The notes: a model not told the origin generated them from the letters alone. Shown: positions 57,085 through 64,000, numbered from the stretch's first letter. The stretch is DNA of 64,000 nt from Amphiscolops sp. MND2022 (GCA_964187785.1 OZ076409.1:558001-622000), one strand, 5' to 3'. A program made the numbers and translations.

Positions 57085-57299
57085 GTGTCTCAGCTCGCTG
57101 AAGGAGGAGCGAGTGACGGCGAGTGGCAAGTTGCAGGGTCCCCAGCCCACCGTGTCGCAGGAGTACAGTAAGGACCCCCAGCAGTTCCTGCAGGCAGTGA
57201 AGAGTGCGCTGTACGCCTCCAAGATCATCTCCTACGCCCAGGGCTTCATGCTCATGAGGGCCGCCAGCCAGGAGCTGAACTGGAACCTCAATATGGGCG
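57085..57299 (+). CDS. PGD: PGD exon 5 (gene continues beyond the window)
   Basis: CLSSLKEERV...ALYASKIISYAQGFMLM; acceptor ctttgaag|G, donor G|GTTAGC. Confidence 0.92.
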
Positions 57300-57377
57300 G
57301 TTAGCGTTTCCCTCCCTCTCTTATCACACACCCACGGCCATAAGGACGGCGTTTAGTCTTCGTCTTAAATAGTACTT

Positions 57378-57721: not shown

Positions 57722-58309
57722 CTATTTCTCTTTGTCTTAGTCTTTATACATCTTTCTTCAAGGACAAGGAATTAAACAAGGACCGTCCAAAAACCGCAGG
57801 TCCGTAGGTTGACAACGTTTTTTGTGCCCATACAAAAGGGCGATTCGGTAAACTGTATTTTTGGTGTCGATACGCTGCGAGCTACAGAGCCTTTTTTGCA
57901 GTGTCAGTAACAGTTCTGTTGAATATCTAAAGGAAAAGAACATGCAAACATGTAGACATGCCAGAAAATTAGTCTAATTTGATTTCGTTTAATCAGATTT
58001 GAACAACTGTAATGTCATTTGAAAAATGCTACTTTGTTCATGCTTCCATGCTGTTCATTCATTAGTTTTTTTTGCTCATTCCCGCTCTAAATCAGTTCTA
58101 ACTTCTCGTTAACTCTCTTTCTCAATCAGAAAACAATTTTGATAGAAACAACAGTTTTTATCGATCAGCTAGTTTAGCACATATATAGAACAACAGTCTC
58201 TATTATTGAGTTATTCTAGCACCGTACATTTTGGTGGCCATTGAGAGGCAAGAGATTTATCACGAATTACTCGAACCTCTATTACAATTACCAAGCAGTT
58301 TATTCCAAC

Positions 58310-61300
58310 ATGGCGGATGAAACTGAAACGCAACGAATGACACGACTGATTAGAACTAGAGGTGGAACTCGAGCAATTGCCACAAGAAGGATGAATCGCC
58401 TGGATGAAATTCTGGCACAAGAATTAACAACAGAAACAAAGCTTGAACTAGCCGCATTGTGCGACGTATTCAAGAAACTTCGACAAACACTCGACGACAT
58501 GAATTCAGATGTTCAAGGGTTGATCGGCGTTGATGAAATTGATGCTGATATGATGACGAGTAACGACTATGATGTAAAACTTGCAGTAGCGATTCAACAA
58601 GTCAATTCAAGGCTAGCAAAAGTTGAAACTGCAACGCTAAGAACGTCGACCGCTTCGACAACTGGAGGTAACCAAGATGCAAGATTGAAGCTACCAAAAC
58701 TTGATATACCCAAATTTGATGGATCATACTCTCAATGGGTATCATTTTCTGACTTGTTTGACGGCGCAGTTCATGCAAATCCAAACCTGACAGGATCCCA
58801 GAAGCTTTTCTACTTGAAGGGATTGCTAACGGGTGAGGCAAAAAGATTGTTAACTTCTATTACAATCACAGACGCAAACTACGAAGAGGCAAGAGACATA
58901 CTGAAAAATCGTTACCAAAACCTCAGAGCAATTGTCAGAGAGCATATTGCCGCAATTGTGAACGCACCGAATGTTAACAAACAAGAAACAGGTTCACTGC
59001 GGAATTTGGCTCAGACAATAGACGAGCACAGACGAGCGCTAGAGGCACTTGGTCAAAACACAGCTGAGATGGACATATTCATAGTCTATCACGTCGTCGA
59101 AAAGATGGATCATGAGTCAAGAAGGCAATGGGAACTGGAACACCCAGGGACAGATATTCTCAAATATGATGACCTCAACAAATTTCTCACAACGAGATGT
59201 CGAGCACTTGAAGCAGCTCATGCAAGCAAACAATCCAACAAGGGGATTGATTTTGGGCAGGCACAAAATGGTGGTAAGCGGAACCATTCACTGTCCGTCA
59301 CTCAAACCAACAAATGCCCACAGTGCAAACAAGCTCATGGATTGTTCGCCTGTGATGAATTCAAGAAGAAGACAGTTGATAATAGACGCAAATTCGTGAG
59401 AGACGAAGGGTTGTGTTTCAACTGTTTACGTTCAGGTCACACAGCTAAAGACTGTTCTTCGACGAAGAAATGTAAGTTATGCAATAAATCTCATAACACG
59501 ATGTTACATATCAATCAAAACAATGTTGCCGCATCAGTGGCCAGCGATGAAACAACCAAAACAAGTACTTGTACACAAATTGCCACAGCCATGGGTTCTA
59601 GCTATCAAGTGTTGCTACAAACAGCCAACATCCAAGTGCTAAGCAAACAAGGACGTCCAGTTTTTTGTCGTGCTCTACTTGACAGTGGGTCACAAATCAA
59701 CCTTATGACTAATGCATGCCGCGCAAAATTGGGACTTGCATTAGAGAACGCTGATTCATCATTCACAGTGGCTGGTACGGGGAAAATTGCGCCAAGCGGG
59801 AAATGCAAGATACAATTACCAATCAAAGACTCAATCATCACAACACCAGCGTTAGTGGTCAAAGGAGGGCTAACAATGCCACTGCCTTCAGTGGAATTTG
59901 ACAGGCCAATCGATTTGCCCAAGCTACCACTGGCTGATTCCAAATTCAATATACCCTCTGAGATTGACATTCTCATTGGCGCTGAACTTTATGAATCACT
60001 TCGAACTGGCAAAACTATCAAACATGGTGATCTTCATTTCACAAGTACAGCTTTTGGCTACGTCGTGTCTGGCCCAATCAAAACAAAGAGCAAAGGATCG
60101 CCAATAGTGAATCACATCATGACACAAGATGATTGTCTTCAGAAATTTTGGGAGACAGAGGAGATACCATTCTCGCCAGAAAACACATGGACCAAGGAAG
60201 AACGAGAATGCTCGAAGCATTACGATGAAACTACGACGCGTCAAAGCGATGGCCGCTTTGTAGTAGAAATGCCGTTCAAGAAACCAACCCCTGCATTTGG
60301 TGACTCATTCAAACAAGCCAGACTGCGTTTCGAAGCACAAGAAAGGAGATTGCAGAGAAACCCTGGGGTGAAGGAGCAATACAAGGCATTCATCAAAGAA
60401 TTCGAAGACATGGGTCACTTAGAAGAAGTGCCTCCAGATGAACTTGATAATGGTTGTGAAAATCATTACTATCTTCCTCACCACGCAGTGTTCAAAGAGT
60501 CAAGTACAACTACCAAGTTGCGAGTAGTATTTGATGGATCGGCAAAGACGTCAAGTGGAGTGTCGCTCAATGACATTCTAATGATTGGTCCAGTACTTCA
60601 ACCTAACATCTTTGATCTGCTGATTCGGTTTCGACTCTACAAATTTGGACTCACAGCCGATGTTGCAAAGATGTATCGCCAAACAGCACTTGCTAAAAAA
60701 GCAAGAAGATTTCACAGACTTTTGTGGCGTGATAATCCAAAGGATGAATTCAGACACCTTTAATTAACACGTGTGATATACGGGATAGCATCAAGTGGCT
60801 ACCATGCTGTTCGCTCACTTCAAGAGACAGCAAAACTCACCGAAAACGAAAATGTTCGCACAGCTATTCTCGAAGGTTTCTACGTGGACGACTTTCTTTC
60901 AGGCTGCAATACCCTGGAAGATGCCAAGGGTCTGCAAGATGAACTCATAGCAACATTGGAAAAAGCCAAATTGCCCCTTCGGAAATGGGTCTCTAATGAT
61001 CAAACACTTGTGGAAAGACTGCCGCCAGATATGCGTGGAGGTGATTTAGTGAATCTATTCGAAGCAGATTCAACTATACGAACGTTGGGAATCACGTGGC
61101 AACCTCAGAAAGACCATTTCAAGTTCACTTGTACCCTACCCAAAATCAATCCACCTGTGACTAAAAGACAAATTTTGTCAGAGATTGCCAAATTGTTCGA
61201 CCCAATAGGGTGGCTAACTCCAATAACCATCAAGGCCAAGATCTGGATTCAGCGTTTGTGGACCCTGGGTCTAGCCTGGGACGAACCTCTGGCAGAAAAT

Positions 61301-63481
61301 CTGATTGAAGAATTCAATGCAGATATCAAGGGCATCGAAACTCTGGAAACATTCACATTGAATCGCTTCATCACAGACTGTGACCCAGTCAAACACGAAA
61401 TTCACTGCTTCACAGATGCATCCATTCATGCATATGCAGCAACTGTTTACCTCGTCACAGAGAAAGCCACAGGCGAAAGAATTTCCCATCTCATTGCAGC
61501 GAAATCAAAGGTTGCCCCCATCAAGACAATCTCATTGCCGCGTTTAGAATTGTGCGGAGCACAATTGGGCGCGAAGTTGACCGATAAGATACTCAAGGCA
61601 TTCAAATCAGTCAATCTGAAGAATCTGGAGACATTCGCATGGACAGATAGCACGATCACGTTAGCTTGGATACAGGCTGTACCTTCAAAATGGAACACAT
61701 TTGTGGCAAACCGAGTGGCCGACATACAAAATTTCATCCCACCATCTCGTTGGTTTCACGTTCCTACGAAGTCAAACCCAGCAGACATTGCATCACGGGG
61801 TACACATGCACCTCAGATAATCAACAACCAACTCTGGTGGAAAGGCCCTCAATTCTTGACGAGTCTCAATCAATGGCCCGACAAGCCGGTCATTGGAGAA
61901 GTTGCAATTGAGAAAAGGAAAATCAAACCAAGCGTGTATAGCGTCGTGTTACCTACGCCACAACTAGATCATGAAAGGTTCTCACAATATAAACGACTGA
62001 GAAACACGCAAGGTTATGTTTTGAGATTCATTCGACAATTGCGTTCGAAGGGTCGACAACAACTTTGTCTCACATTGACCGAACTGAAGTCTGCTCAACA
62101 CCAAATAGTCAAAGATCATCAAGCTCAATACTTTCAAGAGGAAATTCAACTACTCCGTGAAGAAAGGCAGCTTCCACGGAAACACAAATTCATTGGACTG
62201 AATCCCTTTATTGATGAAACCGACGGTCTTATGAAAGTCGGTGGCCGATTGTATCAATCTGACATGGACGACAATGTCAAACTTCCAGTTCTACTCCAAG
62301 CCGATTCTCATCTCGTGAAGATTTTGATTCGTCATCATCATCAACAATGTCTTCATGCTGGTCCACAATCGACATTGTACAACCTTCGTCAACAATTTTG
62401 GTTCGTGAATGCCCGAAATGTTGTTCGTCGAATAATTCAAGCGTGTACTACATGTGCTCGGTTCGCACATACATCATTTCAAACCCCTATGGGACCTTTG
62501 CCTGAAGAAAGAATCACTCCTAGTAAGCCATTTACAAATTGTGGCATTGACTTCGCCGGACCATTTCATATCAAGTTGAAAGGAACTTTGAAATCAACAG
62601 AGAAAGTGTACATCTCATTGTTTGTTTGCTTCGCCACAAAGGCCATTCACCTGGAAATTGTCTCTAGTTTGACTACCGAAGCATGCATTGCCGCATTGAA
62701 ACGATTTGTAGCAAGGCGGGGAGTACCGGCTGCAATATTTAGCGATAATGGTACAAATTTTATTGGTGCACGAAATGAACTTATACAACTTAAATTGATC
62801 CTAGCGAAAAGGAGAAATTCTGTTTCACAATTTGCTACAAATCTTGGAACACAATGGACGATGATCCCGCCCCGAGCCCCACACTTCGGAGGATTATGGG
62901 AAGCAGGCGTGAAGGCTGTCAAGCTGCATCTCAAAAAGATCATATGCAATACAATTCCTTCGTATGAAGAGTTCCTAACACTAGTTATACAAATTGAAGG
63001 AATATTGAATTCACGTCCACTATCCCCGATGAGCTCCGAACCTAACGACTTGGAACCCCTAACGCCAGGGCATTTCCTCATGGGAACTTGCCCAAATAGT
63101 CTGCCAGAAGACCCAAGACAATTAAACATCTCGAGTGAAAGGCGATACCACCTTGTCAAGAAGATGAGACAACAGTTTTGGAATCGCTGGTCTCGAGAAT
63201 ATCTGAATCAACTTCAAAATGTGTCTAAGTGGAAACATATTGGTCGGCAACCCAACGTTCATGATTTGGTCTTGATTGCCGAAGACAATACAACACCTCT
63301 CCAGTGGCCTATTGCAAGGATACTTGAACTTTATCAAGGAAATGATGAAATATCTCGGGTTGCAAAACTCAAGACGAAGAATGCTATACTAATTCGGCCT
63401 GTGACAAAACTCAGACCCCTTCTATCAGAAATCTCGCGTGACCAAGTGGAGGTCTCTCATGACCATGCTGAATCTACTTAA
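58310..63481 (+). CDS. BEL/Pao gag-pol polyprotein with one in-frame TAA (60761-60763)
   Basis: LPKLDIPKFDG gag; three Cys/His knuckles; LLDSGSQ protease; YYLPHH, LRVVFDGS and YVDD RT; FTDAS RNase H; IDFAGP, SDNGTNF and WEAGVK integrase; the two ORF-track ORFs are in the same frame. Confidence 0.93.
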
Positions 63482-63635
63482 TGAAGTTACAAGGATATTG
63501 TTATTATCCACTTACCCTACCCATTTTCAATCCACTTAGGATAACATTATCTTATCCTCTTAGTTTGTTACAACGTTTACCCACTCTCAATCCACGTACA
63601 AAACACAATCATTAAATTCATTTGAGGAGACTCAC

Positions 63636-64000
63636 CTATTTATACTTTGTTATGAAGTCCACATGAGAATTCACCCATCTCAGCCCTATTTGATGGGATC
63701 CCCATACGCCTTTCTGAAGTGATGCAAGACCCAGCATCCATTCCAGTTTGCCGTCTTCTGCCACCCAATGAATGAGGATGTCGACCCCCAACAATGATGC
63801 CAGAGCATGGATAACAATCCCACACACATTTTGATCACAATTAGTTTCTGCAGAACGATGCCCGACACACTCTTCAAAACTGTCTTGGTAAATTGCTCTC
63901 AAGGCTGACTGGATTGACTCGTTCTCCATGTGTGTGAAAACAGCACTTCTCAGTTTCCCGTGATGCCTGTCATCAGCACCGATTCCATGCAACACCGAGA
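63636..64000 (-). CDS. Putative OTU-like cysteine protease domain (C-terminal part), antisense to BEL pol
   Basis: LHG...HGKLRSAVFTHM...IHALASLLGVDILIH...IGLRWVNSHVD follows the OTU pattern HxxLR...AlaxllxvxI...IxLxxxnxH(F/Y)D; the frame is open to the window edge and the catalytic Cys is not visible. Confidence 0.55.
   Translation of the reverse strand, partial: SVLHGIGADDRHHGKLRSAVFTHMENESIQSALRAIYQDSFEECVGHRSAETNCDQNVCGIVIHALASLLGVDILIHWVAEDGKLEWMLGLASLQKGVWGSHQIGLRWVNSHVDFITKYK

Follow-up and report, generated by a model that had tools for sequence, protein, structure and literature searches.

One BEL/Pao LTR retrotransposon of Amphiscolops carries, on the strand opposite to its own coding frame, a gene for a predicted cysteine protease of the OTU fold, and the same protein probably begins with a domain of the kind found at the N-terminus of retroelement integrases. 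The results are jointly explained by an element-borne, selected and exchanged OTU gene, whose product would act for the protection of the element as a deubiquitinase targeted by its integrase-like domain; we give this explanation a probability of roughly 0.7. Most of the uncertainty that is left concerns the activity and the role of the protein, not its identity. The window, by which we mean the whole stretch of DNA that was analysed, is 64,000 nt long and corresponds to G000:C1:558001-622000 of the genome. As the gene and the 3′ part of the element run past its end, coordinates above 64000 are extrapolated (L011 position + 57000).

A complete insertion with an antisense accessory gene

The element extends from window position 57917 to extrapolated position 64882 and is a complete insertion of 6,966 bp. 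Its 5′ LTR (57917-58228, plus strand) is 312 nt long and shares 310 of 312 bases with the 3′ LTR, which lies past the window end (extrapolated 64571-64882; L011 7571-7882), and both have TG...CA ends. The same pentamer, AGTTC, flanks both LTR ends directly as a 5-bp target-site duplication, the left copy at 57912-57916 and the right copy, again past the window end, at extrapolated 64883-64887 (L011 7883-7887). A PPT-like GGGGAGAA run at 64563-64570 adjoins the 3′ LTR. Gag-pol is encoded in a single plus-strand frame (58241-63481, with the pol stop codon at 63479-63481), which gives Pfam matches to DUF1759 (4.6e-36), zf-CCHC, Peptidase_A17 (5.1e-47, 160 bits), Integrase_H2C2, rve and DUF5641 (9.2e-31).

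With this LTR pair, target duplication and set of Pao-type gag-pol domains, the element is a BEL/Pao LTR retrotransposon, as a preliminary description of the window had called it. The same description had reported neither a PPT nor an LTR in 63482-64000, which is correct, since both lie further right. It had also proposed to look for a 3′ LTR beyond the antisense ORF that would pair with ~58035-58228; the partner exists, but the 5′ LTR that it matches begins at 57917.

The insertion is young, with two differences between its LTRs, yet the window copy is dead. It carries a 2-nt indel in the antisense gene and, in the middle of the reverse transcriptase, a private in-frame nonsense codon (60761-60763), at a position where a sense codon stands in the sister copy and in four other families. 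Some 600 nt upstream of the 5′ LTR, an exon-like ORF on the same strand (57113-57304, plus) matches the C-terminal domain of 6-phosphogluconate dehydrogenase (PF00393, E 2.9e-14, profile positions 122-178 of 290), so the element may occupy an intron of that host gene.

Inside the window, the antisense gene is seen as a minus-strand ORF of 120 codons (63636-63998) that is open at the window edge and convergent with pol. The position, the convergence and the stop at 63636 had all been noted in the preliminary description, and they hold; the frame continues beyond the window. What the window contains (63636-64000, minus strand) is the 3′ part of the gene, which encodes the C-terminal two-thirds of the OTU domain and ends with the stop codon at 63636-63638. 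The gene itself runs on to extrapolated position 64521 (L011 7521). The start codon common to all families is the second Met, at 64519-64521, which gives a product of about 295 residues. The 3′ LTR and the matching 5-bp target duplication both lie beyond the gene, which is thus inside the element: it is an accessory gene of the BEL/Pao element itself, placed between pol and the 3′ LTR. An ORF outside the LTR pair, or one missing from sister copies, would have told against the idea of cargo, and here the ORF proves to be both enclosed by the LTRs and present in sister copies. The hexamer GTGAGT, which looks like a splice donor, directly follows the stop codon of the gene (63630-63638, minus strand).

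The ORF was, on the other hand, described as clean, and this does not survive. Alignment with the sister copy places the 2-nt indel near 64072, where it breaks the frame upstream and splits the gene of the window copy into two, an OTU frame of 199 codons between stops and, upstream and overlapping with it, a second frame of 211 codons. The uninterrupted form of the product is represented by a database protein of 323 residues (P0001), and a single open frame of 326-344 codons is found in 13 of the best 20 protein matches in the genome. At the nucleotide level, the 519-nt stretch from the pol stop to the window end recurs in the genome with 38 matches, 20 of them at an identity of at least 96%.

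An OTU fold behind a probable integrase-like domain

In intact sister copies the OTU cysteine protease region takes up residues ~157-295, with Cys172, His287 and Asp289 as its triad. The C-terminal His pattern on which the preliminary description had based its OTU call is real: the catalytic His-x-Asp (H-V-D) is encoded at 63657-63665. The catalytic Cys motif that it expected further upstream was also found, as N-G-N-C, with the Cys codon (64008-64010) 4 codons past the window edge. Sequence profiles give a more graded picture. The 120 in-window residues alone have no Pfam match at E <= 10, so the proposed search against the OTU profile gives a match only once the ORF is extended; OTU (PF02338) is then the sole family matched (E 0.015, 16.2 bits), at a score below the gathering score of 23.3. 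The sister copy, with 15.2 bits, is below it as well. Nine of the 19 family members match OTU at E <= 10, and the best of them, P0012, exceeds the gathering score with 27.9 bits.

Other searches point the same way. A profile of the family, compared with the PDB, finds OTUD3, OTUD5 and OTUD1 only (E 8e-4 to 3.5e-3), at the Cys loop. Remote phmmer matches in a library of 1.84 billion proteins are OTU proteins, including Rep/helicase proteins of the Helitron type, and the matching cluster representatives in this library number only 26. A search of the protein Atlas gave no usable match. When a single sequence was run against the PDB with phmmer, the only match was FliM, which we rejected as spurious.

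We obtained an AlphaFold2 model for the product of the sister copy from the 19-row family alignment (pLDDT 88.7, pTM 0.68). The rows that Foldseek lists for the full model are OTU structures throughout, with OTUD3 at the top (E 4.4e-6, TMt 0.67), and VIA-align puts OTU-type enzymes at all of ranks 1-25, with OTUD1 at Z 12.9 (rmsd 3.4, 129 aligned) and OTUD3 at Z 12.8 (rmsd 3.8, 129 aligned). In the alignment, G170 and C172 are near-invariant, the motif being N-G-N-C in general but D-G-N-C in families D and G, and H-V-D is kept in 16 of the 17 rows that reach the C-terminus. The OTU assignment is firm at the family level, and on the strength of the model we regard the protein as an OTU-fold cysteine protease with a conserved Cys/His/Asp triad.

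Could such a protease serve the element's own polyprotein? The OTU-type proteases of tymoviruses and arteriviruses process polyproteins, and the model does match viral OTU folds, those of TYMV (4a5u_A, Z 6.6) and maize rayado fino virus (7mia_A, Z 5.0). The protein is, however, a separate product encoded antisense and outside gag-pol, and the element has an aspartic protease region of its own. A candidate M-R-G-G at gag-pol residue ~933 is not conserved either, as four other families have RGS, RGS, RRN and RGT in place of R-G-G; this comparison covered one of seven G-G sites. We consider a role in polyprotein processing highly improbable.

The N-terminal half of the protein is of a different kind. 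Residues ~1-107 resemble the N-terminal extension and the HHCC zinc-binding domain of retroelement integrases. Against this half, residues 8-96 of the PFV integrase score Z 7.4-7.9 (81-82 aligned, rmsd 2.8) and residues 26-130 of the Ty3 integrase score Z 7.1-7.7. For a separate model of the N-terminal half, these two integrases are the only rows at Z >= 5, the next row, at 4.9, being unrelated; in Foldseek the 13 best rows for that model are all Ty3, MLV or PFV integrases (prob 0.69-0.99, E 0.04-0.64). The zinc ligands can be read as H67-x7-H75-x31-C107-x2-C110, with H75 and C107 invariant and H67 and C110 each present in 6 of 7 rows. Integrase N-terminal domains have an HHCC spacing of H-x(3-7)-H-x(23-32)-C-x2-C, and the pattern of the antisense product fits the spacing of these domains (PF17921/PF02022).

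Sequence comparison says less about this half. Pfam Integrase_H2C2 matched 2 of the 19 family members, at best with E 0.087, and hhalign found no match between the family profile and the H2C2 region of the element's own integrase (probability 0.3%). No DDE core or rve match was found in any of the 19 members, and the spacer of ~50-60 residues between the finger and the OTU region is too short for one. As the sequence-profile support is weak and the fold Z stays below 8, we grade the assignment as probable: the modelled N-terminal half is probably an integrase N-terminal-type domain. The preliminary description had spoken of a captured deubiquitinase as cargo. An OTU-fold protease is indeed what the gene appears to encode, but a bare one it is not, since an integrase-like half is also present.

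Truncated element proteins can limit copy number, and a finger without a catalytic core brings such proteins to mind. The antisense product might then be a regulator and not an enzyme: its integrase-like domain would, for instance, titrate integrase assembly in the manner of a decoy, and its OTU part would be a ubiquitin-binding or inactive scaffold. It speaks for this that the N-terminal domain, with its integrase NED and HHCC-like parts, shows no less conservation than the OTU part, that there is neither a DDE core between the two nor an rve match, and that a close subfamily can have nothing in the slot of the gene. In a pure scaffold one would hardly expect the active site to persist, and yet the OTU triad is retained in nearly all full-length members, even in families that are 37-45% identical. 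We therefore think a purely regulatory protein unlikely and prefer to see the product as a candidate enzyme.

Coding constraint, cassette exchange and other contents of the slot

We examined 15 further loci (L033-L047), the last of which is the sister copy. The arrangement of a pol tail and a convergent OTU gene is found in 15/15 of them. Across these loci the pol segments have 50-98% amino-acid identity and the OTU proteins 37-68% (99% in the sister copy). Because the same convergent slot is occupied in 15 loci of diverged BEL families, the gene is old in this lineage and its capture was not a recent event. It had been proposed that a young element captured the gene; the insertion in the window is young, as its LTRs attest, but the gene that it carries is not.

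Between families pN is 0.22-0.45, against a saturated pS of 0.75-0.88, and the median in-frame pN/pS over 28 pairs is 0.46; when these columns are shifted to frame +1, it becomes 1.00. Copies of one family differ with a dN/dS of 0.7-0.8, the level that neutral decay after insertion should give. The dN/dS check that had been suggested thus returns constraint between families but neutral decay among the copies of a family. These substitution patterns indicate that the gene has been retained with coding constraint across diverged BEL families.

The frame-specific constraint also bears on another explanation of the ORF, which is that it is a chance open frame or a part of a host gene that abuts the element. 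The weak Pfam score, of the window copy only, is all that speaks for it. The LTR pair and the target duplication enclose the ORF, and all near-identical copies found in the genome have it. It shows constraint in its own frame only and belongs to a family with a confident OTU fold. On these grounds we rejected this explanation and leave it next to no probability.

A more substantial alternative takes the gene for a passenger. It may descend by deletion from an integrase-OTU transposase of the Ginger1 kind that became nested in an ancestral BEL element, and it may be useless to the element that now carries it. Both end domains of Ginger1, the HHCC finger and the OTU domain, occur in the antisense gene product, and its OTU part matches TE-borne OTUs by sequence. 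A useless passenger is, however, hard to reconcile with the clear coding constraint between families, with open frames and catalytic residues that persist where synonymous sites have reached saturation between families, and with the exact boundaries that are preserved when the gene is exchanged (see below). Nor was an integrase-OTU fusion found in the genome with P0028 as the query; apart from the BEL genes, this protein, which combines a weak integrase-SH3 match with OTU, matched only a pair of very long open frames. A search for homologues among longer proteins also returned no fused longer form, which is weak evidence. All in all we judge a passenger decidedly unlikely, and continue with a gene that is selected while it is carried by the element.

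The exchange of the gene is seen most clearly where the backbones have hardly diverged. In family B (L039, L041) the sliding identity to the window copy, 97-100% through pol and 83-96% over the LTR, drops to 44-67% at ~63540-64500. Another locus (L033) behaves alike, with 65-73% over the cassette and 88-99% over its backbone. On the left, the cassette boundary follows a 36-nt block just past the pol stop (63497-63532), which is near-invariant across families whose cassettes differ; on the right, it is close to the start codon. From these identity profiles we conclude that backbones which are otherwise nearly identical exchange the gene as a cassette. The 36-nt block is a putative cis element and could, for example, take part in 3′ end formation of an antisense RNA. 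An imperfect direct repeat of 21 nt (86%) covers the end of this block at 63518-63538 and occurs again 60 nt downstream, at 63578-63598.

The wider distribution of the gene was tallied by cross-matching coordinate lists, which cover 131 of 8,355 pol candidates and 150 of 331 candidates for a second type of cargo, a JmjC-like ORF. Among the matches listed, a convergent OTU match lies within 2.5 kb in 28 of the 35 rows with a pol-tail identity of at least 85%, in 15 of the 26 rows at 60-84% and in 0 of the 72 rows at 51-59%. OTU-gene fragments that are 45-47% identical also occur at G000:C9:36685511-36690475 with a period of ~3.1 kb; this periodicity suggests that partial copies of the element are arranged in tandem.

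Two copies of another BEL family, with pol tails ~54% identical, show what else the slot can hold. Between pol and the 3′ LTR, where our element has its OTU gene, they carry an antisense ORF of 203 codons that is JmjC/cupin-like (L052 866-1474, plus strand, about 1,225,265-1,225,873 of G000:C10; L054 551-1159, minus strand, about 23,147,500-23,148,108 of C9). This ORF scores 22.6-22.9 bits with Pfam JmjC_2, against a gathering score of 22, and E 5e-5 to 8e-5 with Cupin_8; an H-x-D ... H pattern is visible, and matches to PHF8, PHF2 and KDM7 in the PDB are weak (E 0.15-0.24). It is enclosed by two LTRs of 200 nt, which are 99.5% identical to each other. The genome contains at least 150 matches to the ORF, and among the matches listed, 27 of the 72 distant pol tails have it in convergent orientation no more than 3 kb away.

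The slot can also be empty. One copy (L056, G000:C6:6812700-6814500), whose pol tail is 93% identical to ours, has no antisense gene: the conserved post-pol block is followed by ~65 nt and then by the PPT and the LTR homologue. As this copy belongs to a subfamily so close in its pol tail, the antisense gene is dispensable for the structure of the element.

These variants raise a broader idea, which we offer tentatively and would sooner bet against than for. The stretch from the post-pol block to the PPT might be a swappable antisense slot for counter-defence, which holds an OTU protease tethered by an integrase N-terminal domain, a JmjC-type (demethylase-like) enzyme, or nothing. Co-packaged RNAs would recombine and so exchange the cargo, which would erase the ubiquitin or chromatin marks by which the host restricts the element. 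If this were true, the slot would be an animal retrotransposon counterpart of viral deubiquitinases and of the anti-silencing factors of plant transposons.

A possible role and comparison with known systems

What might the element gain from an OTU gene? Antisense transcription would start from the conserved LTR-proximal flank, and the 3′ end of the antisense RNA may form near the conserved post-pol block. The protein, as modelled, would be an active deubiquitinase or a deconjugase of ubiquitin-like proteins, although proteins with an OTU fold and a triad can also be inactive or target a different modifier. Its integrase-like domain may direct it to the nucleoprotein or integration complex of the element, or to the element's DNA, and it would there remove ubiquitin-type marks that otherwise restrict, degrade or silence the element. 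An alternative benefit would be the tuning of repair at integration sites, on which the authors of the Ginger1 study speculate for the OTU and Ulp1 domains of transposons (PMC2836005). Overall, our results hint that BEL/Pao elements of Amphiscolops tamper with the protein-tagging system of their host. A putative anti-silencing role would fit the JmjC-like cargo of sister BEL families, which is no direct evidence for it.

Viruses offer one parallel. The viral OTU deubiquitinases, such as those of the nairovirus L-protein, the arterivirus PLP2 and the tymovirus PRO, are domains of sense-strand RNA-virus polyproteins with shown deubiquitinating or deISGylating activity. The likeness, if our model is right, is that of a selfish element with a DUB-type gene of its own, and the fold is the same as in nairovirus vOTUs (Z 11-12.8), those of Taggert, CCHFV and Kupe virus scoring Z 12.2-12.8 over model residues 115-295. 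The BEL gene differs in its sequence, which is 10-12% identical, and in being a separate antisense gene, known here from sequence and models.

Among mobile elements the Ginger1 transposons come close in architecture. In their transposases, an OTU or Ulp1 protease is attached to the C-terminal end of a Gypsy-type integrase, which has a YPYY motif, an H2C2 finger, DDE and GPY/F (Bao, Kapitonov & Jurka 2010, PMC2836005). As in Ginger1, an integrase-type H2C2/HHCC N-terminus and an OTU cysteine protease appear to be united in one protein of an animal mobile element. Unlike the Ginger1 transposases, the antisense gene product has neither a DDE core nor GPY/F. The carriers also differ: Ginger1 is a cut-and-paste transposon with TIRs, whereas here an LTR retrotransposon with a complete integrase of its own holds the gene in antisense. 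With no DDE core and an LTR carrier, the BEL gene is not a member of Ginger1.

OTU domains occur in animal Helitrons too (PMC2836005; see also PMC4067079). As in Helitrons and Helentrons, the OTU domain here is borne by a transposable element, and two Rep/helicase-OTU proteins (P0029, P0026) are among the nearest relatives outside the family. In Helitrons, which are rolling-circle DNA transposons, the OTU is one part of a very large Rep/Hel protein, whereas in our case it belongs to a small, separate retrotransposon protein. The Amphiscolops genome has OTU-like matches inside open frames of 2,547 and 2,244 codons (G000:C2:103743360-103743701 and C13:25891270-25891641). These are probably Helitron-type Rep/helicase-OTU genes, and would represent another lineage of TE-borne OTUs in the same genome.

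The position of the gene has its parallel in plants. The aORFs of plant LTR retrotransposons are antisense, lie between pol and the 3′ LTR and are thought to be regulatory, according to three studies (PMC7264820, PMC11963269, PMC8220671). The BEL gene resembles them as an antisense extra ORF between pol and the 3′ LTR. The plant aORFs belong to Ty3/Gypsy and Ty1/Copia elements and mostly lack a recognisable enzymatic domain, whereas ours sits in an animal BEL/Pao element and has an enzyme fold. Enzymatic accessory ORFs are known from the LTR retrotransposons of bdelloid rotifers, whose ORF3s include DEDDy, GDSL and dUTPase types (PMC5408684). They too are animal LTR elements that capture enzymatic accessory ORFs and share them across element types. 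The enzymes are different ones, and the term OTU occurs 0 times in PMC5408684. It also has 0 occurrences in a survey of BEL/Pao elements (PMC3118150), and in our literature search, which did not extend to Repbase Reports or subscription journals, no paper was found to describe an OTU domain in an LTR retrotransposon, whether of BEL/Pao or of another type.

OTU proteases of mobile elements are thus already known from DNA transposons (Ginger1, Helitrons) and from RNA viruses, and antisense extra ORFs have been described mostly in the LTR elements of plants, where they have no clear function. What differs here is that an animal LTR lineage has retained an enzyme-encoding antisense gene under selection, different versions of which have been traded between backbones. 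Variants with, without and with swapped cargo occur naturally in a single genome, and sister lineages have a JmjC-like gene in the same slot. Next to the viral, transposon and plant systems, this gene is an assayable candidate for how retrotransposons might counter ubiquitin- or chromatin-based control by their host.
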